Positions 27,697 to 38,893 of a stretch of DNA of 64,000 nucleotides are shown here, in pieces; position 1 is the first letter of the stretch; the number at the start of each line of letters is the position of its first letter. Source of the DNA: Oscillibacter sp. (GTDB lineage: Bacteria; Bacillota; Clostridia; Oscillospirales; Oscillospiraceae); contig DPPB01000031.1 in assembly GCA_003539495.1 (NCBI GenBank), positions 21,407 through 85,406 on the forward strand. Direction: 5' to 3'. The notes beneath the pieces were generated by a model, which searched no databases, had not been told where the DNA came from, and saw nothing but the letters and a program-made list of their open reading frames with translations. Both the position numbers and the translations under genes were made by a program.

Positions 27697-30600
27697 TTAC
27701 GCCTCCCGCTCCTTACGCTTCAGCACGAAGGCTGCGGCGAGAAGCGCCACGGGCAGGGCGATGACCCACACCAGCACGCCGGTGTCGCCGGTGGCGGGGG
27801 TGTCAGTGCCGGGATTCGTGGGATCGGTCTTACCGGGATCGCTGGGATCGGTCTTGCCGGGATCACTGGGATCGGTCTTGCCGGGATCATCGGGATTGGC
27901 AGGCGTATTGCCGCCGGTCTGGATGGTCACATCACTCATATCGTACAGGCTGGTCTGGCCATTTAGGAAGCGGTAGTACGACGCCAGGGCGTAGTAGCCC
28001 TGCTCGGTGGCCATACCGTTCCGCTCGCCGTCAGCGGTGTGCTTAAATCCGCCGCCGTCCACATAGAATCCGGCCAGGGCGCCCAAAACAGTGGAGCCGT
28101 TCTTCACAAAGCGGCTGTCTGTGGCGGGGTCGATGCCCAGGGCCGTCAGGGCCACGATAACTTGGGCGCAGGATTCGCTGTTCACGGTGCCCCAGCTGCC
28201 AAAGCCGCCGTCGCTGCGCTGCAGGGTGGAAAGAGCCTCCAGGGCCTTATCCACAGCGGCCTTTACGGTCTCGTTGGTCTTATAGTAGGGGGCCAGGGCC
28301 TGGATGGCCATAGCGGTCATATCGGTGTCGGCGTTCTCGCCGCTGAGGTTCCAGCCGCCGTTGGGAAGCTGGGCATCCAGGATCACCTGAATCAGCTTCT
28401 CCCGGGTCACATCACCCATGGTGGGATAATTGTGGCTATCCAGGGCAATAAGGGTGAAAATGGGGCCGTTGATGCCCTGCTTCTGCACATAGGCCATGTT
28501 ATCCAGGCCCTTCAGCAGGTTGTGGCCACCCACATTGGTGACATCCTTGCCGATAGCCGTCAGGGCCAGGATAATGCGGGCGTTGTCGGTGACCTTCGCC
28601 CGGTGCAGACGCTCATTGGCGTCAGCCATGGCCTTCACATACTCCACCACATTGTCATAGTACCCGGCGGGCACAGTGCGGCCACTGCGGGCCAGGCCGA
28701 TGACCATCCACTCGCCACCGGTGGAGCCGACGCCGGGGGTACCCAGGGCGGCGATAAAGTCGCCGGTGGTCTTGTAAATCTTCTCCAGACGCTCGCTCTG
28801 CTCGGCCAGCAGCCGGGCATAAGCCGCCTCGGCGGCGGTGAGCTTGTCGTAGTTCTTGACCTCTGCCTTCTGCTCCTCGGTCAGGGCGTCATAGGCCGCA
28901 CGGGCCGCCTGGATGGCGCTCTCGGAATCCAGGGTCACCTCGCCGATGGCGTCGATAAGCTTCTCCACAGGCTTGGCGGGCTTCAGAACCGCCAGGCGAG
29001 CCTCGGCGGCGGTGAGCTTCTCATAGCTCTTGACCTCGGCCTGCTGGGCCTCCGTCAGTGCCTCATAGGCAGCCCGGGCGGCGTCGATGGCGCCCTCAGA
29101 CTCCAGGGTCACCTCGCCGATGGCGTCGATCATATCGTCCACGGCCTTGGCAGCCTTCAGATCGGCCAGGCGAGCCTCAGCGGCGGTGAGCTTATCATAG
29201 CTCTTGACCTCGGCCTGCTGGGCCTCTGTCAGTGCCTCATAGGCAGCCCGAGCGGCAGCAATGGCATCTTCGGACTCCAGGGTCACCTCTCCGATGGCAT
29301 CGATCATGTCGTCCACAGGCTTGGCGGCCTTCAGATCGGCCAGGCGAGCCTCGGCGGCGGTGAGCTTGTCATAGCTCTTGACCTCGGCCTGCTGGGCCTC
29401 CGTCAGTGCCTCATAGGCAGCCCGGGCAGCGGCGATGGCCTCCTCGGACTCCAGGGTCACCTCGCCAATAGCGTCGATCATATCGTCCACGGCCTTGGCA
29501 GCCTTCAGATCGGCCAGGCGAGCCTCGGCAGCGGTGAGCACGTTGTAGTTGGTGACCTGCTCCTTCTGCGTCTCCGTCAGTGCCTCATAGGCAGCCCGGG
29601 CGGCGGTGATGGCCTCCTCGGACGCCAGGGTCACCTCGCCAATGGCGTCGATCTTCTCTATAACGTCGTTTACATACCAGCCCTCCAGCTTCAGGGACAG
29701 AGCGGGCAGCTGGGAAACTATAGCAGCAGCACTTGTGCCATACGGATTGTCGATACCGTCACCATAGGATAGGATGCGGTGAGTGGGGACTTTTGCAAAG
29801 CCGCCCACATTGATGGCGCCGGTCAGGTCGAAGCTCAGACCATCCCAATCCTCGGGGATGGTAATCTCAAGCTTCTGGCGGACAGGATTGCCGCTGAAGT
29901 CATACACACCACCCCAGCCGCCGGGATTGGACTTATAATATTTGCCGTCAGCACCCTTGTAGTACAGGGTGAAGTTAAAGTTATAGGCGCCGGAAATCTT
30001 CTCCTTGGGGCTAATGAGGCCATGGAACTGAACGGTCACCTTGTCCCCGGCCTTGAACTCGGTGCCTGCGGGGAGGACCTTGCCGTCCGCATCCAGGAAG
30101 TCATAGCTGACGCCCCGGGCGGTGACCACCTGGTAGGTCTTAACGCCGTCCTTCTCCACGCAGAGGATGTGCCGGCCGGTAGTGAGGCCGGTAACCGTCA
30201 CGGTGCCGTCGGCGGCCACGGTGACGCCCTTGGAGGTAAAGCCGCTAAAGCTCATCTTGTCGGTGACGGTGGAGCGGGCCACGGTGACGGTGCAGCCTTC
30301 CTCGGGCTTAAAGCTGTAGGATGCACCTGCATCGCCCAGGTAGAACAGGATGTCGTGCTCGGCATCCAATGCCTTCTGCGCATCGCTGCTTATGGTGGCA
30401 TCCATCCGGTCCATGGTCATGTTGGTGGCAATGGAGGAGCCATCCGCCCCCACGGACACCACGAACACGCCGGTGCACTCCGGCCAGATGGCGGAGAAGC
30501 CGCGGTTTTCCTTGTTGCTGGTCTGGCCCTGCATATGGGTCATGGCGTCATAGGTCACCAGGACGATGGCCGTGCCGGCCTTATTGGCCTTCATATACGC

Positions 30601-30708
30601 CAGGGAGCTGTTGTTCTCGTCGGGGGTGATGGTCACCACATCGCTGGACTGACCGTTCAGGTCCACCACGGTGTAATGCACATCCGGCAGGGCGATCTGG
30701 GCATTCAT
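27697..30708 (-). CDS. Large surface-associated protein: beta-domains, 4-5 FIVAR-like helical repeats, a prenyltransferase/terpene-cyclase-like alpha/alpha-toroid domain (the transcobalamin alpha-domain-like fold), a Pro/Asp/Thr linker and a C-terminal TM anchor
   Basis: 1003 aa. Tandem ~58-aa repeats …IDAIGEVTLESEEAIAAARAAYEALTEAQQAEVKSYDKLTAAEARLADLKAAK…. Toroid repeats …GGWNLSGENADTDMTAMAIQALAPYY…RSDGGFGSWG…SCAQVIVALTALG…. (DPSDPGKT)x3. C-terminal VLVWVIALPVALLAAAFVLKRKEREA. No N-terminal signal peptide in the listed frame. Confidence 0.7.
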   Translation of the reverse strand: MNAQIALPDVHYTVVDLNGQSSDVVTITPDENNSSLAYMKANKAGTAIVLVTYDAMTHMQGQTSNKENRGFSAIWPECTGVFVVSVGADGSSIATNMTMDRMDATISSDAQKALDAEHDILFYLGDAGASYSFKPEEGCTVTVARSTVTDKMSFSGFTSKGVTVAADGTVTVTGLTTGRHILCVEKDGVKTYQVVTARGVSYDFLDADGKVLPAGTEFKAGDKVTVQFHGLISPKEKISGAYNFNFTLYYKGADGKYYKSNPGGWGGVYDFSGNPVRQKLEITIPEDWDGLSFDLTGAINVGGFAKVPTHRILSYGDGIDNPYGTSAAAIVSQLPALSLKLEGWYVNDVIEKIDAIGEVTLASEEAITAARAAYEALTETQKEQVTNYNVLTAAEARLADLKAAKAVDDMIDAIGEVTLESEEAIAAARAAYEALTEAQQAEVKSYDKLTAAEARLADLKAAKPVDDMIDAIGEVTLESEDAIAAARAAYEALTEAQQAEVKSYDKLTAAEARLADLKAAKAVDDMIDAIGEVTLESEGAIDAARAAYEALTEAQQAEVKSYEKLTAAEARLAVLKPAKPVEKLIDAIGEVTLDSESAIQAARAAYDALTEEQKAEVKNYDKLTAAEAAYARLLAEQSERLEKIYKTTGDFIAALGTPGVGSTGGEWMVIGLARSGRTVPAGYYDNVVEYVKAMADANERLHRAKVTDNARIILALTAIGKDVTNVGGHNLLKGLDNMAYVQKQGINGPIFTLIALDSHNYPTMGDVTREKLIQVILDAQLPNGGWNLSGENADTDMTAMAIQALAPYYKTNETVKAAVDKALEALSTLQRSDGGFGSWGTVNSESCAQVIVALTALGIDPATDSRFVKNGSTVLGALAGFYVDGGGFKHTADGERNGMATEQGYYALASYYRFLNGQTSLYDMSDVTIQTGGNTPANPDDPGKTDPSDPGKTDPSDPGKTDPTNPGTDTPATGDTGVLVWVIALPVALLAAAFVLKRKEREA

Positions 30709-30726
30709 AAAGTTCTCAATGGCTTG

Positions 30727-33195
30727 CTAGCAGCGGAACACGTCCAGCTCCCGGGTCTGGCCCTGCTCCAGGTTCAGATAGCCCTTCTGATTGATATTCA
30801 GGTATACATTACCCAGGTCATAAACATTCTTATTGAAGCGGTTCACCGTGTCCTTGGTGAAGGACTCGTCCCCAATGTGCAGGTCGTCCTTGGTCACATT
30901 GAAGGTAGCGCCTGCCTTGTACTTGCCAAAGGTCCAGTAGGTCACGCCGTCCGGGTGCTGCACACGGAGGAAGTGGTTCACGCTGGTCTCCGACAGGAGG
31001 AAAGTGACGGTCATGGTGTCGCCCTCGGTCTTGGTAGACAGAGGCTTGGCGAAGTCATAGACATAGTAGTTGCCGAACTCGCCCATGCTGACAGTGGACC
31101 CGGCGGGGGCGGTGACGGTGACGGGCACGGCCACGGGGATCTTGGCAGTGAGGTCCAGCGCACCTTTATCCGTCGTTTCGCTGCGGGATTTTTTGACGGT
31201 GATGGGATTATAGTCCGCCGCCTTATCCCCCACAGGGGTCAGGGTTGCTTTCAGCGTGTCGCCCTCAACAAAAATGCCGGAGGTGCGGGTGGTGCCCCAG
31301 TTAGTGGAGGTGCCTGGCTCGGCCTTGCGGTTCATGCCGTCGGCGCTGACCACCTGGTAGTCGATGGTGTAGTCGGTGTTCTCGATCCAGCCGTTGTTGG
31401 TGGCATAGATCGCATAGACCCGCTGGAAGGTGATGGCAGTGGTGTCCTCCGCCACGGTGACAACGATGCCGCCGTTATACTGGCCGGCTTCATTGTAGCC
31501 CTGAACCCAGTAGTTGCCCACAGGCAGCTTCACATCGGCATACTTCAGTTTGTAGCCATCAGCCACGGTGGACTTGCCGGCCAGCAGGTCCACATCGCCC
31601 TTGACGCCGCCGGCATAGCTATACAGCTTCAGGGACGCCAGCTGGGCGCTATGCAGGCCCTTCAGGTCCAAGGTGACCATGGGGATCTCCTTGACCTTGG
31701 CCGTGGGATTCATCAGCGCATAGACTCCCTCGTCCTCGTTGCTCACGGCGGTGAGATAGCCGGTGAAGCCATCGGCCACGGTAAAGGTGGCCTGGCCCTT
31801 TTTATCGGTGACAGCGCCTTCAATGACGGTGACAGCGCCGGTCTCGGGATCCACCCAGCCCAGCTTGGCCCCCTCCAGGGGCTTGGCCGCAGCCTTCAGC
31901 TCGGCAGGAGTCTTGTGCAGGTAGGCACTCGAAGCGTAGAAGCCGGTGACGGTAGCGGTGACCTTCTGTCCCACATACATCTCGGCGGGAGCATCCACCC
32001 AGGTATAATAGTCCGACCAGGTGCTGTCATCCGCATACACGTAAAAGTCCACCACGTCGCCGCTGAGCAGCGGGGTATTGGTGACCATGGTGCCGTTGTA
32101 GCCGCCGCCGTAGGAGGCAGGGGTACCGTCATTGGGATACCCCTGGTTTACAAAGAAACCGCAGGCGTAGGTCTCAACGCCGAAAATCTTGGAGATCCAG
32201 CCGCTGCTGCCCACAGCCAGATACTCCCCGGCTGTTTCCTTGGTAAAGGCTTCACCAAAGACCAGCTCGTGGGCCTTGACCAGGGCGTCCAGGGCGGTCA
32301 CTCCCTCCAATGCATCGGTAAAGCCGTATTTCTCGGCTTCAAGGGCGGAAACCTCCACCTCCTGGGGTGCGTGGAGATAGGCGCCCACCATCTGGGAGCG
32401 GAGCGTCACCTTCACGGCGGCAGGGGCCTCCTGGGAAACGGTGATCTTATACTCGTGGGCCTCAGCATCTTTGTTCATGCTGGGCCAGGAGGGATCGCCG
32501 CACTTGACGGTGATGACCGTTCCGTCGGCCACAGGGATCTTAGCCGTGCGCTTGTACTCCGTGCCGTCCACGCTGGTGCGGACCTGGAAGTTCTTGTTGG
32601 TGGCGGTGGGAGTGACCTGAACGCTGCTGACCTTGGAGGACAGCTTCAGGGTATAGCTGTCGGTGTCCTTGTGAAAGGTGGGGGACAGCTGGCCATCGCT
32701 GAAGGTCAGGGCCTTGACGGTGGTGTCATTGTTATTCCAGCTGCCGCCCAGGTCGTCGCCATAGGCGCGGGTGTACATGACGCGGATCTCGTCGCCGGCC
32801 TCCAGGGTGCCTGCGGCCACGGTAAAGGCGGCGAAGCCTTCGTTGGTAAACCAATCGTTGAGGGTTCCCATCCAGCCGGAAGCGGAGCCGCCGTCAAGCT
32901 CAGACAGGCCGTTGATCTCGCTGATGTAGGTAGTGCCGGTATGGGTGTATCCCTTGGCGTCCAACGCCTCAAAGACACAGCCCATCATGGTGGAATCCCC
33001 GGTGAGCTTCACCCAGGTATCCACCAGCGTGCCGGTCCAGGCAGGAGCTTTACCATCCACAGGTTTTGTGAAGGTAGTGTTTTCCACGATGACATGGGCC
33101 TTGCCCAGGTCAACGGGCGCTGCCAGCACGGAGGTGGGCACCAGGGACAGGGCCATCACCAATGCCAGCAGCAGGGATAAAATCTTTTTCTTCAT
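30727..33195 (-). CDS. Secreted surface protein with two DUF4430 (transcobalamin beta-domain-like) domains, a cadherin-like beta-sandwich and further beta-domains
   Basis: Signal peptide MKKKILSLLLALVMALSLVPTSVLA. DUF4430 signatures …SGWMGTLNDWFTNEGFAAFTVAAGTLEAGDEIRVMYT… and …SSGWISKIFGVETYACGFFVNQGYPNDG…GDVVDFYVY…. Cadherin-like segment LTFSDGQLSPTFHKDTDSYTLKLSSKVSSVQVTPTA. By my count the stop is at 30726-30728, 17 nt before the next gene's start. Confidence 0.7.
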   Translation of the reverse strand: MKKKILSLLLALVMALSLVPTSVLAAPVDLGKAHVIVENTTFTKPVDGKAPAWTGTLVDTWVKLTGDSTMMGCVFEALDAKGYTHTGTTYISEINGLSELDGGSASGWMGTLNDWFTNEGFAAFTVAAGTLEAGDEIRVMYTRAYGDDLGGSWNNNDTTVKALTFSDGQLSPTFHKDTDSYTLKLSSKVSSVQVTPTATNKNFQVRTSVDGTEYKRTAKIPVADGTVITVKCGDPSWPSMNKDAEAHEYKITVSQEAPAAVKVTLRSQMVGAYLHAPQEVEVSALEAEKYGFTDALEGVTALDALVKAHELVFGEAFTKETAGEYLAVGSSGWISKIFGVETYACGFFVNQGYPNDGTPASYGGGYNGTMVTNTPLLSGDVVDFYVYADDSTWSDYYTWVDAPAEMYVGQKVTATVTGFYASSAYLHKTPAELKAAAKPLEGAKLGWVDPETGAVTVIEGAVTDKKGQATFTVADGFTGYLTAVSNEDEGVYALMNPTAKVKEIPMVTLDLKGLHSAQLASLKLYSYAGGVKGDVDLLAGKSTVADGYKLKYADVKLPVGNYWVQGYNEAGQYNGGIVVTVAEDTTAITFQRVYAIYATNNGWIENTDYTIDYQVVSADGMNRKAEPGTSTNWGTTRTSGIFVEGDTLKATLTPVGDKAADYNPITVKKSRSETTDKGALDLTAKIPVAVPVTVTAPAGSTVSMGEFGNYYVYDFAKPLSTKTEGDTMTVTFLLSETSVNHFLRVQHPDGVTYWTFGKYKAGATFNVTKDDLHIGDESFTKDTVNRFNKNVYDLGNVYLNINQKGYLNLEQGQTRELDVFRC

Positions 33196-33324
33196 CTCTT
33201 ATTTCCTTTCTTTCGAATTTTATGCAAACGCCTCTATGGCGAATTTGCCGAGGAACGGGGGCGGAGCGGCTTAAACTCCGGCCCCCTATGGAAAGATGCG
33301 GCTGCTGCGCCGCTTCGGCTTGGC

Positions 33325-33360
33325 AAAAAGAAACGCCCGGCTGCCATAGGCAGCCGGGCG
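33325..33360 (-). terminator. Intrinsic terminator forming the expression platform of the putative cobalamin riboswitch
   Basis: cgcccggctgcc-atag-gcagccgggcg followed (minus strand) by TTTCTTTTT. Lies within the 5' leader about 130 nt upstream of the DUF4430 gene start. Confidence 0.65.
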
Positions 33361-33545
33361 CAATAATCCCTTACATTTTGCGCTTCGACCCCGGTGATGG
33401 CAGCGGTCTGGGAGCAGCGCCTTGCGTATCTGACTTAGCCTGTCAAAGCAGGCTTCACAGTGACCGTCTCGCGGGGCTTTTCACCCCATTCCGCCGCCGG
33501 GATAATACCCGGCTCACGCTGTCCCATTATTCGGTTGTCTCCACT
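33361..33545 (-). promoter_or_regulatory. Candidate cobalamin (B12) riboswitch aptamer in the leader of the DUF4430 surface-protein gene
   Basis: Minus-strand RNA …AAUGGGACAGCG…GGAAUGGGGUGAAAAGCCCCGCGAGACGGUCACUGUGAAGCCUGCUUUGACAGGCUAAGUCAGAUACGC…CCCAGACCGCUGCC… resembles the Cbl consensus: the GGUGnAAA…CCC block, the (G)CCACUG box, and a B12-box-like AGUCAGAUAC…CCGCUGCC. A TTGTAT-N17-TAAAGT promoter lies at 33543-33571. No covariance-model scan was run. Confidence 0.5.
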
Positions 33546-33606
33546 TTAACACACCCTGCGGCAAAATACAAGCCCCTTTTCGCCATTTTTTTCGGGGCAG
33601 CGCAGA

Positions 33607-33963
33607 CTACTTCAGCCGCAGCGGCAGGCCGCAGAAGATCCGGGTGACGGAGTCCGCCTGCCGGGCCAGAGTGCACACGGCCCGGCCCACCTCCTCCCGC
33701 CATAGGCGCTGGGTCTTATCCATAGGCACCACTCCGCAGGACACGTCCGTGCAAAGCACCACGGCATCCGGCCGCAGGTTGGGCAGCACAAAGGGCTCCC
33801 CGGCGGCTACGGCGGCATACACCGCCTGCTCTAAATAGCAGATGCAGCGGCGGGAGGTGTCAAAGCCGCCGTCATAGCAGGCCAGATCCTCCTGCGTCAG
33901 GTGAAAATGCTCCATAGCGTAGGCCAGCTTCCCCTGATAGGCCCCACCGATGATGAGATCCAT
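33607..33963 (-). CDS. Truncated CobU-like protein (adenosylcobinamide kinase/guanylyltransferase paralogue lacking the central region, degenerate P-loop)
   Basis: 118 aa. N-terminal IIGGAYQGKL resembles the CobU P-loop (LSGGCKNGKS in the full-length neighbour). The C-terminal …VVLCTDVSCGVVPMDKTQRLWREEVGRAVCTLARQADSVTRIFCGLPLRLK matches the CobU C-terminus (…GLPLKLK). Confidence 0.55.
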   Translation of the reverse strand: MDLIIGGAYQGKLAYAMEHFHLTQEDLACYDGGFDTSRRCICYLEQAVYAAVAAGEPFVLPNLRPDAVVLCTDVSCGVVPMDKTQRLWREEVGRAVCTLARQADSVTRIFCGLPLRLK

Positions 33964-33975
33964 AGTCTTTCCTCC

Positions 33976-34716
33976 TTATAACAGCAGCAGCGCGGCGCTG
34001 CCGGCCAATTCACCCAAAGTGATAGCAGCACCGGAGATATCCCCGCACATGCCGCCCAAATTCCGCCGCAGAGAAAAGGCCGTGACGGCAGCCACAAAAA
34101 TAGCCATCGCCGGGGGTAAAAAGCCCCACCCGGAAACCAGCACACCCAGCCCCACGGACACAGCCCCCAAAGCCCATGCGGTGGCGGCGGCCCCCCGGCT
34201 CTGCCCCATGGCATGGTAGCCGCTGGTCTCCAATGGTTTAAGGCCCAGCACCGCCCCGGCGCTGACACACCGGGCCCCGGCGCACACCAGGGGCAGCGCC
34301 CACAGTCTGTCCGCCTCCCCCGGGCAGAGCCACACGCTGTACCCGGCCATAGCCAGCAGCACCAGGCAGATAACGGCAAAGGAGCCCACATGGGAGTCCT
34401 TGAGTATCTCCCGGCGGCGGGCCTGCTCCCGGCGGGAGAGCACCGCGTCACAACAGTCCATAAAACCGTCCAGGTGGATAAAGCCTGTGAGACACCAGGG
34501 CGCTACCGTCATGCACAGGGCAAAAATGGGTCCCGGCGCAGAAATGCGCAGCAGCAAAAGGCCGATCCCCGCCCAGATAAGCCCCAAAGCGCCGCCTAAA
34601 AAAGGCAGGCACAGGAGCATCTGCCGGTAGCAGCCGCTGTCCCAACGGCGGATGGGGTTGGGAATGGCACAAAACATCCCCCAACACATAGAAAAGCCGG
34701 TGAACCATTTTTTCAT
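33976..34716 (-). CDS. cobS: Adenosylcobinamide-GDP ribazoletransferase (cobalamin synthase)
   Basis: Polytopic membrane protein with the HLDGFMDCCDA and GGMCGDISGA CobS motifs. Confidence 0.9.
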   Translation of the reverse strand: MKKWFTGFSMCWGMFCAIPNPIRRWDSGCYRQMLLCLPFLGGALGLIWAGIGLLLLRISAPGPIFALCMTVAPWCLTGFIHLDGFMDCCDAVLSRREQARRREILKDSHVGSFAVICLVLLAMAGYSVWLCPGEADRLWALPLVCAGARCVSAGAVLGLKPLETSGYHAMGQSRGAAATAWALGAVSVGLGVLVSGWGFLPPAMAIFVAAVTAFSLRRNLGGMCGDISGAAITLGELAGSAALLLL

Positions 34717-35252
34717 ACAGGCAGTTCTCCTTTGTAAACGATGCGGCCCCCGAAGCTCACCTCTGCTACAGCGTCACACACGGCGGCCAGGCTCCGGTCG
34801 ATATGGGCCAGGCCCCGGCGATACTGCTCCGTGAGGTCGCCGTAAATCATGGCGTCGGAATAAATATAGTCGCTGACGAACACCATGCTTTTCATTCGCC
34901 GGGCCAAGGCTGTCAGCTCCCGGGCCACCCGCTCCGGGGCGGTGAGATCTATCGAGCCGTCCGGGCGGAACATCTCATTGGAAAGCAGGGCGGTGACGCT
35001 ATCCAAAAGGTAGGTACCCTCCACATCAGCATCCTGCAGTGCCGCCTCCAGCCCCAGGCCGCACTCAATGGTCTGAAAGCCCAGGCCCGAGCGGCTGGCC
35101 ACATGGCGGGCAATGCGGCTGCGGTCCTCCTCATCGTGGGGGATCATGGTGGCCAGATAATACAGCTGCCCCGGCCGGCTCAAGTACACGGCGGTCTGCT
35201 CGGCCAGTGTGGATTTCCCGTTTTTACAGCCGCCGGAGAGAAACACGGTCAT
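34713..35252 (-). CDS. cobU: Bifunctional adenosylcobinamide kinase / adenosylcobinamide-phosphate guanylyltransferase
   Basis: P-loop MTVFLSGGCKNGKST and the CobU C-terminal region. Start ATG 35252 lies 1 nt after the cobT stop (TGAtATG). Confidence 0.85.
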   Translation of the reverse strand: MTVFLSGGCKNGKSTLAEQTAVYLSRPGQLYYLATMIPHDEEDRSRIARHVASRSGLGFQTIECGLGLEAALQDADVEGTYLLDSVTALLSNEMFRPDGSIDLTAPERVARELTALARRMKSMVFVSDYIYSDAMIYGDLTEQYRRGLAHIDRSLAAVCDAVAEVSFGGRIVYKGELPV

Positions 35253-35253
35253 A

Positions 35254-36345
35254 TCAGAAGCAATCCTTTCCCCGGATGTCATCCAGATAGCTGTCGTCGA
35301 TGGCAGCGCCGGCAAAGGTGGCCATGCCCTCGGCGGCGGCGCAGGCCGCCTCCATCACCCGAAAAGCGATGGGGCAGCCGCTGCCCTCTCCCAGGCGCAT
35401 GCCCAGGTGCAGCCACGGCTCCAGGCCCAACTCCTTTACAGCGGCGGCATAGCCCACCTCGTGGGAGGCGTGAGAGGCGAAGAAATAGTCCTCTGCCGCC
35501 GGGCACAGCCGCCCGGCGCACAGGGCCGCCACCACGGAGATGAACCCATCGATGACCACCGGCAGCCGCTGCCGGGCCGCCCCCAGGAACACGCCGCACA
35601 TGGCGGCTATGTCCAATCCGCCCACCTTGCTCAAAACGTCCAGCACATCGTTTTTGTCCGGCCGGTGCAGGGCCAGGGCGTCGGTGATGACCTGCTTTTT
35701 TCGCAGGAAGCCTGCGTCGGTCATGCCGCCGCCACGGCCGGTGACAGCCTCTACCGGCAGGCCCGTCAGGGCTGCCAGCACCGCTGCGGAGGTGGTGGTG
35801 TTGCCAATGCCCATCTCCCCGGCGCCTAATATGGCCACACCCTCCTCCTTCGCCTGGCGGGCCAGCTCCATACCCGTCCAGACGGACCGGGCCGCCTCCT
35901 GCCGGGTCATAGCGGGCTCCCGCGCTAAATTGCGGGTACCGGGCAGGATCCTCCGGTTCAGGATAGCCGGGCAATCGTATTCATCGGCGATGCCCACATC
36001 CACCACCTGTATCTCATCTCCAAAGTGATGGGCCATAGCGCTCATACCGGTGCAATAGTTTGTCATGTTCACCGCCTGGGCCGCCGTGACGCTCCGGGGC
36101 GTCACGGATACGCCCTCCTCCACCACGCCGTTATCCGCACAGAGGACGATAATGCGGCAGGGGCTATAGACCGGGTGCAGCTTCCCGCTGATGCCGCACA
36201 GGCGGATATAGATATTCTCCAGCGCCCCCAGGCTGCCCGGGGGCTTGGCCAGGGTGCCCTGGTATACCGCCGCCCGGGCCATGGCATCGGCATCGGCGGG
36301 AGTGATATGGGGCAGCTCCTTTAGGAGCCGTTCTTCGTAATTCAT
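35254..36345 (-). CDS. cobT: Nicotinate-nucleotide--dimethylbenzimidazole phosphoribosyltransferase
   Basis: 363 aa with GEMGIGNTT, the catalytic Glu region and overall CobT collinearity. Start ATG 36345 overlaps the upstream gene's stop (ATGA). The 5' 185 codons of the track ORF overlap the TIM-barrel gene and are rejected. Confidence 0.9.
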   Translation of the reverse strand: MNYEERLLKELPHITPADADAMARAAVYQGTLAKPPGSLGALENIYIRLCGISGKLHPVYSPCRIIVLCADNGVVEEGVSVTPRSVTAAQAVNMTNYCTGMSAMAHHFGDEIQVVDVGIADEYDCPAILNRRILPGTRNLAREPAMTRQEAARSVWTGMELARQAKEEGVAILGAGEMGIGNTTTSAAVLAALTGLPVEAVTGRGGGMTDAGFLRKKQVITDALALHRPDKNDVLDVLSKVGGLDIAAMCGVFLGAARQRLPVVIDGFISVVAALCAGRLCPAAEDYFFASHASHEVGYAAAVKELGLEPWLHLGMRLGEGSGCPIAFRVMEAACAAAEGMATFAGAAIDDSYLDDIRGKDCF

Positions 36346-37100
36346 AGCGTTAAAAATCCTTTTTCCAGCAGCCAGCGGACGTTCTCCTCCGCCTGTAATG
36401 TCTCCAATGTATAGGTTAGGTGTTCTTCCCGGGCCAGTGCGTGCAGCACCTGCTCCATGGGGATGGTGCCCCGTTTCAGGGGGTCGTGAAGGTCCCCGCC
36501 GCCGGCATTGTTGTGCAGGTGCAGATGCCGCAGGTAGGGCCTGCACACCTCCACCCAATCCATGACCGGGGTGCGGGACAGCTCCGCATTGGCGTGGCCC
36601 ACATCCAGGCACAGCCGCAGCCGGGGGTCGTCCACCTGGCGGATGATGTCCACCGGAATCTGTGGCGACGGCTCCATGACGTTTTCCAGGCACAGGACCA
36701 TGCCCGCCGGCACCTGCGGCAGAAACTCCCGCCAAAACTCCACGGATTTCTCCACGAACCACTCCGGATAGTATACCCACGGGATAAATCCCGTGTGAAC
36801 CACCAGCAGCCGGCAACCCCAATCCTGGGCGGCAGCCAGGGCCTGGGCGTAGCGATGCCGGGCCAGGCTGACAGCCAGGGGGTCGATGGCGGCGGGACAC
36901 AGCTCATTGAACGGCGCATGGAACACAAACCGTTTCGCCGCCTGCCGGTGGCACTGTGCAGCTGTCACCACCTCCGGAATGGGGGCATCCAGATTCGCGG
37001 CAGTGCAGTATTCGGCAATCTCCAGGCCCAGACCGTACCGGGCGGCGGTCTCATCGCACCCGGCGGAAACGGTAGAAATATAGAGCTGGCTGCAGTCCAT
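36342..37100 (-). CDS. Sugar-phosphate isomerase/epimerase-like TIM-barrel protein (xylose-isomerase-like / AP-endonuclease-2 fold), first gene of the cobTUS operon
   Basis: 252 aa with the His/Glu/Asp metal-ligand pattern (…VVHTGF…CLENV…LDVGHANA…HLHLHNN…) typical of this superfamily. RBS GGAG. Stop overlaps the cobT start. Confidence 0.6.
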   Translation of the reverse strand: MDCSQLYISTVSAGCDETAARYGLGLEIAEYCTAANLDAPIPEVVTAAQCHRQAAKRFVFHAPFNELCPAAIDPLAVSLARHRYAQALAAAQDWGCRLLVVHTGFIPWVYYPEWFVEKSVEFWREFLPQVPAGMVLCLENVMEPSPQIPVDIIRQVDDPRLRLCLDVGHANAELSRTPVMDWVEVCRPYLRHLHLHNNAGGGDLHDPLKRGTIPMEQVLHALAREEHLTYTLETLQAEENVRWLLEKGFLTL

Positions 37101-37131
37101 GGCGCTTCTCCTTTTTCTTTTATGCGGGAAA

Positions 37132-37160
37132 AGTATACCACGGCAGCCCGCCCTTGTAAA
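37132..37160 (-). promoter_or_regulatory. Sigma-A promoter (TTTACA-N17-TATACT) for the TIM-barrel-cobT-cobU-cobS operon
   Basis: Consensus-like hexamers about 30 nt upstream of the ATG at 37100, immediately downstream of a terminator. Confidence 0.65.
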
Positions 37161-37250: not shown

Positions 37251-37808
37251 TTACGCCTCTGTCAGGCCGTTTTCCGCCATGACCTTTTGCAGGATCGCCT
37301 CCGGGTCATTGCCCTGGATGTCCAGCCCCTCCGCCAGAAGCAGCCGGGTAGCTGGGATGCCGAAATAGTCCTCCGCCAGTGCCTTCACATACCCATAGCC
37401 AAAGCGCCCGTCAAAAGGGCCGCCCGACGTTGTGACATAGATCAGCTCCTCCGCCCGGCACATGCCCTCCGGCCGGCCGTCGGCGCCATACCGCGTCACG
37501 ATGCCCGTGGCGTAGATGTTTTCGATATAGATCTTCAGCTGAGCCGGGAAGGACAGGTCCCAGTAGGGCGCCGCTATCACGATCCGGTCCGCCGCGGCGA
37601 ACTGATGGGAATAGCGGAATATCTCGCCGTCCAGCTCGCCCCGGTCCAGCAGCTCCTCCCGATGGGGCAGCCGCTGGGGGTCCATAGCCCGGATGGGCTC
37701 ATCGTATAGTCGCAGCTCCTCGTACTCCCCCAGCTTTTTCAGCAGTGCCCGGGCCAGACGGTCCGTGCGGGAGTTCATCCGGGGGCAGCAGTTAATGTAT
37801 AGGGTCAT
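37251..37808 (-). CDS. Flavodoxin-like fold NAD(P)H-dependent FMN reductase / azoreductase-type oxidoreductase
   Basis: 185 aa. The MTLYINCCPR…RTDRLARALL N-terminus and DRIVIAAPYWDLSFPAQLK match the Flavodoxin_2/AzoR family pattern. Confidence 0.6.
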   Translation of the reverse strand: MTLYINCCPRMNSRTDRLARALLKKLGEYEELRLYDEPIRAMDPQRLPHREELLDRGELDGEIFRYSHQFAAADRIVIAAPYWDLSFPAQLKIYIENIYATGIVTRYGADGRPEGMCRAEELIYVTTSGGPFDGRFGYGYVKALAEDYFGIPATRLLLAEGLDIQGNDPEAILQKVMAENGLTEA

Positions 37809-37837
37809 GGGGTATACCTCCTCATAAAGTTGTCTTT

Positions 37838-38893
37838 TTACGCTTTTTCTATCTGCCGGGCAAAATCTGCCGCCCGCCGTTCGATACCCGGCAGGCGCAC
37901 AAGGCTCCCCCGCTCGTTGGCTGTTTCCAGCAGGCAGAAATGAGGCGGCAGGAAAAAGGACTTGTTCATATTCAGGGCCGAAATCAGCTGCCGGGCCAGT
38001 AAGTCACCCCCGGAGTAGCCGGAAACCACCAGGCCAAACAGGCGCTTGTCGTAAAACCGCTGCTGGCGAAACAGGGCCGTCAGGCGATTGACGCAGGCGG
38101 TGAGATTGGCAGACAGGGCGTCATTATAGTTGGCGCAGAGCATCACCAGCGCATCGCATCGGCGCACAGCGGGATAGACCTCCTGTACCATGGGCCCGCT
38201 TCCGTAAAAGCAGCTGCCCTGCTCACCGAAATGCAGACATGCGGTGTAGCTGCAGCCGTTGCAATCGGGCACGGTGCCGTTGCGCAGGCCGATTTCCTCC
38301 ACCTCCATCTCCGGCGGCAGCGCTCGGCGCACCAGCTCCCAAAAGGCCAGAGTGTTGGAGGTGCTGCGCTGGGAGGCATGCAGGGCCAGTATATGGCGGA
38401 TGGGCCCGGGCTTTTCCCAGGCTGCCAGCCTTTCTATCAGCTCCGAAATCGACGCCCGGAAGGCCGTCTCCTCATTCACGCCGCCTATCTGGGCCTGGAC
38501 ACGGAAATTGCGCAGCGATCCGGTGGCCTCCACCAGGGGCCGGCCCAAAAAGGCGCAGCCCGCCTGATTGGCGGCAAACACCATGTCCCGGGCCACATCC
38601 TTGGTGTAAAACTCCCCCACGCCTGTGACAATCACTCCGGCCACGCAGCCGGTAAGCAAGCTCACATCCCGCCGCAGCCGGGAGAGCATGTGATAGTACG
38701 CTTCATTGCAGCCTCCCTCGTCCAGAGCCACGGCAAACAGGAGGCGCCGACCCTGCAAGCCCTCCAGGTCTCTTTCCGGGTCAGCGAAGACGCTGCCCAG
38801 GGGCAGCAGGGGCGTGAGCATTTCCTCCAGGGCAGAGCTATATGCATTTTTCGGTAAAAGAACGGTCAGCGGCATTTTTACCCCTTCTTTCAT
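37838..38893 (-). CDS. Two-domain flavoprotein: an unknown N-terminal domain plus a C-terminal iron-sulfur-flavoprotein-like NADPH-dependent FMN reductase domain
   Basis: C-terminal …ILALHASQRSTSNTLAFWELV…CNGCSYTAC…CDALVMLCANYNDALSANL… is an Isf/FMN_red-like flavodoxin fold with a Cys cluster. No homology to the N-terminal 170 aa recognised by eye. Confidence 0.5.
   Translation of the reverse strand: MKEGVKMPLTVLLPKNAYSSALEEMLTPLLPLGSVFADPERDLEGLQGRRLLFAVALDEGGCNEAYYHMLSRLRRDVSLLTGCVAGVIVTGVGEFYTKDVARDMVFAANQAGCAFLGRPLVEATGSLRNFRVQAQIGGVNEETAFRASISELIERLAAWEKPGPIRHILALHASQRSTSNTLAFWELVRRALPPEMEVEEIGLRNGTVPDCNGCSYTACLHFGEQGSCFYGSGPMVQEVYPAVRRCDALVMLCANYNDALSANLTACVNRLTALFRQQRFYDKRLFGLVVSGYSGGDLLARQLISALNMNKSFFLPPHFCLLETANERGSLVRLPGIERRAADFARQIEKA

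Follow-up and report, generated by a model that had tools for sequence, protein, structure and literature searches.

The window, a stretch of 64,000 nucleotides, carries on its minus strand five tightly packed genes that are predicted to form one transcription unit and probably do so (Table 1). A TIM-barrel gene leads the series and is followed by cobT, a divergent cobU (big CobU), cobS and a second, short cobU-like gene (mini-CobU). The TIM barrel and mini-CobU are two previously undescribed extras of the lower-loop operon. The gene identities that an earlier sequence-only reading had proposed were confirmed by Pfam, and the co-directional arrangement and the promoter that it had named were likewise recovered.

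The leader between the promoter and the TIM-barrel gene comprises about 25-30 nt, and an Rfam search found no riboswitch in it. A promoter scan located three sites of such quality in the region, compared with 1.1 expected from shuffling, and a hairpin with a T-run immediately upstream of the promoter terminates the preceding gene. The stop and start codons had been described as overlapping throughout, which is true of the TIM/cobT and cobU/cobS junctions with their shared ATGA, but cobT and cobU are 1 nt apart and cobS is separated from mini-CobU by 12 nt, with a GGAGG ribosome-binding site.

Table 1. Features of the operon and its flanks, with positions counted from the first nucleotide of the window.
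Feature	Position	Strand	Evidence
Promoter, sigma-70-like, TTTACA-N17-TATACT with TG extension	37132..37160	-	10 of 12 consensus positions matched
TIM barrel, endonuclease-IV-like, 252 aa	36342..37100	-	Pfam PF01261 AP_endonuc_2, 73.7 bits
cobT, NaMN:base phosphoribosyltransferase, 363 aa	35254..36345	-	PF02277 (DBI_PRT/CobT), 412.6 bits; TIGR03160, 395 bits, above cut-off
big CobU (divergent CobU), 179 aa	34713..35252	-	PF02283, 95 bits over profile positions 1-163
cobS, cobamide-5'-phosphate synthase, membrane protein, 246 aa	33976..34716	-	PF02654, 120 bits
mini-CobU, 118 aa	33607..33963	-	PF02283, 36.1 bits, profile positions 111-168 only
Junction 3' of mini-CobU (place of cobC in relatives)	33196..33606	-	intergenic sequence and a weak riboswitch-like element only

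Corrinoid profile of the host and loss of cobC

Judging from its gene content, the host, a gut Vescimonas, is corrinoid-dependent and does not make corrinoids or vitamin B12. CbiB, CbiZ, CbiC and a PduO-type adenosyltransferase were all absent from its genome (98% complete), which encodes two proteins with B12-binding domains. The same corrinoid profile has been described for A. muciniphila by Mok et al. (PMC7733943).

The lack of a CobC-type phosphatase gene, already pointed out in the sequence-only reading, extends to the whole genome. Neither the operon nor the host genome contains a stand-alone cobC of the His_Phos_1 type, a tblastn search of the genome with congener cobC found nothing, and the sole match to the CobC model (TIGR03162) is a His_Phos_1-GNAT fusion at another locus, with about 116-118 bits and a cut-off of 162.9. 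In relatives this operon ends with a gene for a His_Phos_1 protein that matches CobC best among the NCBIfam models, and in the more distant congeners cobC stands at the operon end in 16 of 16 cases. The corresponding junction of the host is bridged by contigs from three independent public runs and is therefore no assembly artefact; its weak AdoCbl-riboswitch-like element (33424-33497; 22.7 bits, E 0.55) leads into the gene that follows. In five close relatives, among them V. fastidiosa MM35 with its complete genome, the GNAT fusion is the only His_Phos_1 protein of any kind, and by gene content cobC is lost in the whole V. fastidiosa subclade. The operonic cobCs of the relatives reach 90-105 bits on the CobC model, and the fusion, which outscores them, could accordingly cover the CobC step.

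Complementary losses in the two CobU proteins

The two CobU homologues of the operon have lost complementary parts of the canonical sequence. In big CobU the P-loop (GGCKNGKS), the guanylyl-histidine segment and LLD..N are preserved, and the motif alignment shows that its C-terminal NEVGxGIVP/RxFRD motif has been replaced; G7, G8, G12, K13, S14 and H50 are invariant in its subfamily. The guanylyl-accepting histidine corresponds to His46 of S. enterica CobU. The degenerate P-loop and the CobU C-terminus that had been recognized in mini-CobU were both verified. A pseudo-P-loop, GGAYQGKL, stands in place of Walker A GxxxxGK[ST], with Leu at position 13 in 82% of close relatives and a family consensus that is not Ser/Thr, and a three-way alignment, a comparison with CobU that had been suggested earlier, documents the absence of the guanylyl-histidine segment and the retention of precisely the canonical C-terminal motif that big CobU lost. 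Without the Walker A Ser/Thr and the histidine, catalysis by mini-CobU is unlikely.

The mini-CobU family comprises 863 clusters at 90% identity, nearly all of 118-123 aa, and 395 representative clusters at 50% identity (E<=1e-30), with the invariant motifs GGAxQGK, GVVP, RxWRE..GR and FCG. The AF2 model of mini-CobU is compact (pLDDT 95), and its top 24 Foldseek matches are all CobU (TMq 0.64-0.80). Big CobU and mini-CobU share the fold of CobU/CobP (S. enterica 1CBU/1C9K; 7TM8, 8YES, 9VIO). In canonical CobU, three copies of a single complete chain form a homotrimer, whereas the conserved motifs are here split over two chains or two fusion domains. A decaying duplicate or pseudogene, as previously considered for a protein that covers about two thirds of CobU and has a degenerate P-loop, can practically be dismissed in view of hundreds of same-length orthologues with motifs invariant down to about 30% identity, the confident compact AF2 model and the conserved fused forms.

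The distribution of mini-CobU follows that of the divergent CobU type. Among 300 sampled Clostridia, the mini gene is placed after cobS and near a divergent CobU in about 23; divergent CobU (67-138 bits) occurs in 26 genomes, of which 23 also have mini-CobU (21 separate, 2 fused) and three do not. The only mini-like sequence in the about 76 genomes with canonical CobU (147-215 bits) is an 86-aa fragment in genome G045. In about 45 of the best 150 representatives the mini domain forms the C-terminal part of a longer protein, and at least 16 clusters are fusions of big CobU and mini-CobU. The modeled complex of the two proteins has an ipSAE of 0.73, compared with 0.00 for the best of three controls, and passes a mark that 58 of 80 solved complexes and 2 of 110 mismatched pairs attain, calibration counts that apply only roughly here because the complex was modeled from our own alignments. 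The model runs share at least 97% of their contacts, with a partner pLDDT of at least 90. Since both chains are homologous to CobU, this pass may reflect no more than the known homotrimeric CobU structures. The mini-CobU residues at the predicted interface have a mean column conservation of 0.75 versus 0.48 elsewhere.

These data suggest that mini-CobU is probably a non-catalytic partner subunit of big CobU. This is close to the regulatory or binding paralogue that had been envisaged, but the role is specifically that of a partner subunit. A function of mini-CobU on its own, as a nucleotide- or corrinoid-binding carrier, a CobS-docking adaptor or an alpha-riboside kinase, appears unlikely: the invariant lysine-containing pseudo-P-loop, the nearly constant location after cobS, three clusters of CobS-mini fusions and two fusions to domains of other cob enzymes, one of the aminotransferase class and one resembling precorrin-2 dehydrogenase, would be in accordance with it, but fusions to big CobU are far commoner, the co-occurrence is specific to the CobU subfamily that is devoid of the motif retained by mini-CobU, and the missing Walker A Ser/Thr and histidine make catalysis unlikely.

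Metal site and genomic context of the TIM barrel

The nine metal ligands of endonuclease IV are invariant in 52 homologues of the TIM-barrel protein (H61, H102, E139, D166, H169, H194, D203, H205 and E233). Eight of them map in hhalign onto H109, E145, D179, H182, H216, D229, H231 and E261 of E. coli Nfo, and the ninth, H61, lies where the equivalent strand ends and is matched by the MJ1311 motif in the alignment. The AF2 model (pLDDT 96) has TIM-barrel structural matches, and the best sequence and fold matches are MJ1311 (E 5e-12) and TTHB071 (E 3e-7), with a TM of about 0.75. Endonuclease IV (Nfo), MJ1311 (3WQO) and TTHB071 (3AYT/3AYV) have the same nine-ligand three-metal centre, and the invariance of these ligands is indicative of a phosphoesterase rather than an isomerase. 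Uechi et al. reportedly described in 2014 that the MJ1311 structure has the nine endonuclease IV ligands without the DNA-binding groove.

Conservation of the TIM-barrel gene next to cob genes was found in congeners and beyond. Of the 24 congeners sampled first, 14 have the gene, always directly upstream of cobT, which corresponds to 14 of the 18 genomes with cobT and none of the six without it; genus-wide it occurs in 55 of 97 species. Four gene orders were observed, namely TIM-cobT-cobU-cobS-mini-cobC, an ECF transporter and DUF4430-TIM-cobU-cobS-mini-cobC (L134), cobT-cobU-cobS-cobC-TIM (G284), and ABC-ECF S component-DUF4430-TIM (G188). Synteny with cob genes is also seen in L134-L136, G284 and V. 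fastidiosa, and the operon of L135 contains CobU and lacks mini-CobU. The homologue of G239 adjoins pcrA-ligA, a DNA-repair setting, and the neighbours are uninformative in G204, on the short contig L137 and on a Clostridium tagluense plasmid.

Comparison with CbiR

CbiR of Akkermansia converts a cobamide to cobinamide-phosphate and an alpha-riboside (Mok et al. 2020, PMC7733943). It is an AP_endonuc_2 TIM barrel too (A. muciniphila Amuc_1679; NF041277), and the metal ligands H, E, D, H, H, D, H, E of its consensus align with H102, E139, D166, H169, H194, D203, H205 and E233. The resemblance includes the co-orientation with cobT/U/S/C, in some genomes the association with corrinoid transporters, and a host without de novo corrinoid synthesis and CbiZ. 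The TIM-barrel protein nevertheless differs from CbiR in sequence. It obtains 33.6 bits on NF041277, over profile positions 120-238 only, versus a curated equivalog cut-off of 105 bits, and ordinary Verrucomicrobiota TIM barrels score higher (42-74 bits). BLASTP against 16 CbiRs above the cut-off gave a best E of 1e-4 and 0.004-1.4 for the others, and hhalign of the family gave an E of 2e-7 to CbiR versus 7e-23 to ordinary TIM barrels. A classification as recognized CbiR was rejected on the NF041277 cut-off and the BLAST criteria that Mok et al. applied to CbiR (homologues at E<1e-3, the clade set at E<1e-14; PMC7733943). The same authors listed 282 CbiR homologues, only two of them from Firmicutes and neither adjoining cob genes (PMC7733943). 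In a tree with few outgroups, the TIM family and CbiR form separate clades on long stems (SH-aLRT 98 and 99) that are unjoined in the free topology, and the AU test does not reject their joining (p 0.59). Our best guess is that the TIM barrel is probably a CbiR-like cobamide phosphodiesterase, a candidate cutter of imported B12-like cofactors.

The sequence-only reading had considered other functions for the TIM barrel. A non-orthologous alpha-ribazole-phosphate or cobamide-phosphate phosphatase in place of CobC, or in a weaker form such a step added to its original job in the cobC-less V. fastidiosa subclade, is decidedly unlikely. Endonuclease IV has 3'-phosphatase activity too, and a metal centre of this type, the retention of just the His_Phos_1-GNAT fusion in the host and its five close relatives, and the occurrence of this fusion also in congeners without cob genes would agree with a replacement. 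However, the TIM barrel and cobC occur together in one operon in all 12 of the more distant congeners that have the TIM gene as well as in G284, L134, L135 and L136, so the two are not alternatives and the primary role of the TIM barrel is not that of CobC; moreover, the fusion protein could provide the dephosphorylation. It is quite improbable that the TIM barrel is a sugar isomerase or epimerase with the ribosyl moiety of the lower-ligand nucleotide as its substrate. Ketose 3-epimerases are among the top Foldseek matches, at a fold distance similar to that of endonuclease IV, and NCBI names the homologues 'sugar phosphate isomerase/epimerase', but epimerases of the superfamily such as the D-tagatose 3-epimerase family bind their metal through four ligands (E, D, H, E) whereas the TIM family keeps all nine of endonuclease IV, and we know of no step in nucleotide-loop assembly that requires an isomerase.

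Even less probable is an endonuclease-IV-like DNA repair nuclease of the cell with an incidental position beside cobT. This would account for the absence of a canonical nfo in the genome and for the pcrA-ligA neighbourhood in G239, and MJ1311 and TTHB071, the nearest relatives of known structure, have been named as putative homologues of endonuclease IV (PMC2770678, PMC3084264). Yet no protein of the genome, the TIM-barrel protein included, matches the nfo model TIGR00587 at E<=0.001, and unlike endonuclease IV the gene tracks cob genes in its distribution, with its restriction to cobT-bearing congeners in the 24-genome sample and its linkage to cob or B12-uptake genes in four arrangements. 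The Thermus homologue of TTHB071, for comparison, is located among sugar ABC-transporter genes and not among cob genes.

A proposed route for lower-ligand exchange

In the proposed pathway, the TIM barrel most likely cuts the nucleotide-loop phosphodiester of an imported cobamide, which would yield cobinamide-phosphate and an alpha-riboside, and CobT, according to its family assignment, would activate the new base. Big CobU with its P-loop and guanylyl-histidine would then guanylylate cobinamide-phosphate as a hetero-oligomer with mini-CobU; the partnership is supported by the data above, and mechanistically mini-CobU could supply the C-terminal motif that is missing in the big subunit and may tether the enzyme to the membrane-bound CobS. 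The latter, again by family, would join the two halves. The last dephosphorylation would proceed without a dedicated gene, with the His_Phos_1-GNAT protein, another phosphatase or the TIM enzyme itself as candidates. On balance we lean towards a scenario in which the TIM barrel acts as cobamide phosphodiesterase and mini-CobU and big CobU as a hetero-oligomer, and in which the operon would allow a Vescimonas that produces no corrinoids to equip those that it imports with a lower ligand that it selects itself.

Structure of the cob operon and its host

The organization of the operon, which comprises five head-to-tail genes, and of its surroundings is presented in the Table. The sequence and the gene assignments confirmed the five-gene operon and the promoter-like site as described in the sequence-only reading. 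The overlap of stop and start codons, which had been assumed throughout, holds for two of the four junctions (ATGA), whereas the other two genes are set apart by gaps of 1 nt and 12 nt.

Features of the cob operon and its flanks (positions in the window)
Feature	Position	Strand	Size	Remarks
Two flavin reductase-like genes	37251-38893	minus	185 aa, 351 aa	just upstream of operon; Flavodoxin_2/azoreductase-like protein and protein with C-terminal FMN_red domain; terminator between them and operon
Promoter-like site TTTACA-N17-TATACT, TG extension	37160-37132	minus		directly past terminator hairpin of preceding flavodoxin-like gene
Operon	37100 to 33607	minus		TIM barrel, cobT, cobU, cobS, mini-cobU
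TIM barrel, AP_endonuc_2	36342-37100	minus	252 aa	gene 1
Second promoter-like site TTCACA-N18-TATACT (10/12)	36770-36799	minus		within TIM-barrel gene
CobT		minus	363 aa	score above NCBI equivalog cut-off
CobU, divergent	34713-35252	minus	179 aa	gene 3
CobS		minus		gene 4
Mini-CobU	33607-33963	minus	118 aa	CobU profile matched over last third only
AdoCbl-riboswitch-like element	33424-33497	minus		weak (22.7 bits); directly downstream of operon; core 33451-33496
Region with riboswitch-like element, DUF4430 + cadherin-like protein gene and ORF	27697-33572	minus	822 aa, 1003 aa	both genes after riboswitch-like element

The operon leader is not long enough to hold a riboswitch. Rfam gave zero matches in the whole window at gathering thresholds and none in the leader at relaxed thresholds, the sole match then being the AdoCbl-like element downstream of the operon, whose core recurs on many other gut-metagenome contigs. 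The internal promoter-like site could yield a cobT-cobU-cobS-mini transcript without the TIM-barrel gene or be due to chance. The operon is a self-contained cassette for lower-ligand attachment or remodelling. Its two atypical genes, for the TIM barrel and mini-CobU, are real, conserved and hitherto undescribed, and neither is unique to the source genome.

The source assembly (2.1 Mb, 98% complete) encodes two proteins with a B12-binding domain, and no CbiB/CobD, CbiZ, CbiC or PduO-type adenosyltransferase was found in it. The lack of detected ring-synthesis genes together with the B12-binding proteins indicates that the host consumes corrinoids and cannot make the ring, and the missing CbiZ closes the CbiZ remodelling route. 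Entry to CobU-CobS is thus confined to free cobinamide or cobinamide-phosphate. This gene profile agrees with that reported for Akkermansia muciniphila by Mok et al. (PMC7733943). A copy of the TIM-barrel gene with 79% identity heads the same operon on the replicon pMM35_01 of Vescimonas fastidiosa MM35, a human-gut member of the Oscillospiraceae that is in culture. Its record agrees in coordinates with genome G492, which belongs to the genus of the window, and this places the window in a Vescimonas species. The cob operon of the 861-kb “plasmid” pMM35_01 (L143, NZ_AP023416.1, 489915-504670) adjoins a ribosomal-protein/secY/rpoA cluster; the replicon is therefore no plasmid but a second chromosome or chromid.

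The TIM-barrel family

The TIM-barrel gene is syntenic with cob genes in relatives. It is present in 14 of 24 sampled Vescimonas species, directly upstream of cobT; all 14 carriers possess cobT, and the gene was not found in the six species of the sample that lack cobT. In the whole genus it was found in 55 of 97 species. Elsewhere it precedes cobT-cobU-cobS-cobC (contig L135) or cobT-cobU-cobS-mini-cobC (contig L136), follows an ECF transporter and a DUF4430 protein in front of cobU-cobS-mini-cobC (contig L134), stands behind cobC at the operon end (genome G284), or is the last gene of a unit of ABC, ECF S component and DUF4430 genes (genome G188). An exception is genome G239, where the homologue adjoins pcrA-ligA. 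The contexts in genome G204, on the short contig L137 and on a Clostridium tagluense plasmid are uninformative, and neither the latter homologue nor the one of Thermus is linked to cobamide genes, their neighbours being unrelated genes in C. tagluense and sugar ABC-transporter genes in Thermus.

The sole NCBIfam match of the protein is CbiR, the cobamide-remodelling phosphodiesterase of A. muciniphila, with a score of 33.6 bits where the cut-off demands 105. As evidence of membership in CbiR this weak match was rejected, because ordinary TIM barrels outscore the window protein on this model. The comparison set, with an Akkermansiaceae MAG as entry point, contained 16 true CbiRs (218-263 bits) and nine ordinary TIM barrels of Verrucomicrobiota. 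BLASTP of the window family gave E-values of 1e-4 to 1.4 against the CbiRs, as compared with 1e-11 to 3e-3 for the ordinary barrels, and hhalign 2e-7 versus 7e-23. By these comparisons, ordinary barrels are at least as close to CbiR as the family is. In the phylogenetic tree both families form well-supported clades with long stems that are not joined in the free topology; a sister relationship was not rejected by the AU test (p 0.59). The list of 282 homologues in Mok et al. (PMC7733943) includes just two from Firmicutes, neither of which adjoins cob genes. The family is therefore not a recognized CbiR. As a side observation, the Akkermansia-specific 16S primer AM1 matches exactly on several short contigs (L070, L071, L080, L081, L094 and others) in MAGs labelled Bacteroidales, Collinsella, Mailhella and Muribaculaceae, probably rRNA contigs of Akkermansia that were placed in the wrong bins.

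The family comprises 1,935 clusters at 90% identity. Across 52 homologues, nine residues do not vary (H61, H102, E139, D166, H169, H194, D203, H205 and E233), and eight of these align with the three-metal-centre ligands of Escherichia coli endonuclease IV and with the corresponding positions of CbiR. This pattern points to a phosphoesterase rather than an epimerase. Among solved proteins, the orphans MJ1311 and TTHB071 come closest; on their function a literature search returned nothing usable. CbiR yields cobinamide-phosphate, from which CobU, CobT, CobS and CobC rebuild a new cobamide (Mok et al., PMC7733943). Given the gene context and the host profile resembling that of A. muciniphila, the most economical reading of the TIM barrel is a cobamide phosphodiesterase whose origin is independent or very distant; we give this specific reaction roughly an even chance.

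The last dephosphorylation

The proposal of the sequence-only reading that the TIM barrel stands in for the phosphatase CobC was not supported. In all 16 more distant congeners (other Vescimonas species) with a readable operon, it closes with a His_Phos_1 gene that overlaps mini-cobU and has CobC as its best NCBIfam match. Twelve of them also harbor the TIM-barrel gene, hence the two are not alternatives. Mutual replacement within the genus was likewise rejected, as a more sensitive search and the use of a congener cobC as query retrieved cobC from every TIM-positive distant congener. The reported absence of cobC from the operon was corroborated for the entire source genome, with the operon junction bridged by contigs of three independent runs, and cobC is absent from V. 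fastidiosa too. Five genomes of the close subclade (TIM-barrel identity 77-98%) contain no His_Phos_1 protein besides a 353-aa His_Phos_1-GNAT frame, and this consistent lack indicates that cobC was lost once in the subclade.

The best NCBIfam match of the His_Phos_1-GNAT fusion is CobC with 116 bits, which exceeds the scores of the operonic cobCs; it is also present in congeners without cob genes. The fusion is conserved in 23 of 24 sampled Vescimonas species. Its representative in the source genome (342 aa; G000:C20:156255-157280, L001:985-2013) is located outside the window and has a YgiQ-type radical SAM gene as its neighbour. The last dephosphorylation may fall to the fusion protein, to another phosphatase or, as a side activity, to the TIM enzyme.

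A probable two-chain CobU

The mini-CobU family comprises 863 clusters at 90% identity in a word-indexed search, nearly all of 118-123 aa and with full-length coverage down to 48% identity, and 395 clusters at E<=1e-30 when 1.8 billion representatives were searched with a profile. The motifs GGAxQGK, D..RC, CGVVP, RxWRE..GR and FCG.P..LK are near-invariant. AlphaFold predicts a compact structure (pLDDT 95), whose best 24 matches in the PDB are all CobU structures (TMq 0.64-0.80). Mini-CobU is not mentioned in the literature searched, a search on short or second CobUs and on CobU residue roles gave nothing usable, and ESM Atlas look-ups returned generic names only.

Full-length CobU hits in 300 evenly sampled Clostridia genomes split into two score groups, a canonical one with 147-215 bits (about 76 genomes) and a divergent one with 67-138 bits (26 genomes). 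Mini-CobU occurs in 23 of the 26 genomes with divergent CobU; in 21 it is a gene of its own 1-1.5 kb downstream, and in two it is fused. It is absent from all of the approximately 76 canonical genomes, the nearest thing being an 86-aa fragment in genome G045, and no genome of the sample with the pair encodes a canonical CobU. The commonest gene order is (cobT)-cobU-cobS-mini-(cobC), with cobU of the divergent type. In a three-way alignment the divergent CobU retains the Walker A motif, the histidine segment and LLD..N, whereas VTNEVGxGIVP...RxFRDxxGR is exchanged for its own motif VS..I.SDG..YD..TE.Y. Mini-CobU lacks the Ser/Thr of Walker A and the histidine segment and keeps the canonical C-terminal motif.

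The two proteins constitute a single open frame in genomes G229 and G125, and the protein collection contains at least 16 clusters of such fusions and three of CobS-mini fusions. WP_294428909.1 is an example of a natural fusion. About 45 of the best 150 representative matches are longer proteins (roughly 285-575 aa) in which the mini domain is C-terminal. The majority measure 285-405 aa and show two or three stretches of match, the pattern expected of fusions with the divergent CobU. The predicted complex of both chains scored 0.73 versus 0.00 for the best of three controls, above a mark passed by 58 of 80 solved complexes and two of 110 mismatched pairs, but this pass may merely mirror likeness to the solved CobU homotrimers. 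Contact agreement between runs was at least 97% and the partner pLDDT at least 90. The predicted interface of mini-CobU consists of the pseudo-P-loop, the GVVP/RxWR motif and the FCG strand, which are its most conserved residues. On the side of the partner, contact is made by the C-terminal strands and by the SD motif specific to its subfamily. Both chains probably act together, and we infer that the divergent CobU is the catalytic subunit, with mini-CobU as a pseudo-subunit completing the cleft between subunits. Mini-CobU may, in addition, tether the enzyme to CobS, as its fusions with CobS suggest.

A small cysteine-rich PF04071 “zf-like” gene follows cobC in one operon (L136:10104-10394), and in the 840-aa protein P0251 this domain is fused to divergent CobU-mini and an aminotransferase-class domain. 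The gene may be a further unrecognized member of the nucleotide-loop set.

Implications for cobamide use in gut Clostridia

Taken together, we tentatively propose, at somewhat less than even confidence, that a non-CbiR, endonuclease-IV-like TIM-barrel family hydrolyses imported cobamides for remodelling and that CobU is an obligate heteromer or tandem fusion, both being undescribed and widespread in gut Clostridia. The TIM-barrel enzyme would sometimes be wired straight to ECF/DUF4430 uptake genes and may also have freed the V. fastidiosa subclade from the need for CobC. The two-chain CobU would account for about a quarter of the sampled CobU-bearing Clostridia, with the motifs of the homotrimer split between a catalytic subunit and a pseudo-subunit. 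Since V. fastidiosa MM35 is cultured and harbors the same operon, both ideas are directly testable there.

The cobamides that a gut bacterium can use or rebuild shape competition in the microbiome, and their genome-based prediction depends on the recognition of CbiZ, CbiR and CobU. Should the TIM-barrel family prove to be a remodelling enzyme, the cobamide remodellers would include many Oscillospiraceae and related Clostridia that now count as carriers of a “sugar phosphate isomerase”. If CobU is heteromeric in these lineages, a 120-aa gene would be a required part of the pathway and not a misannotated fragment, and heterologous engineering of the B12 pathway with Clostridial genes would need both chains.
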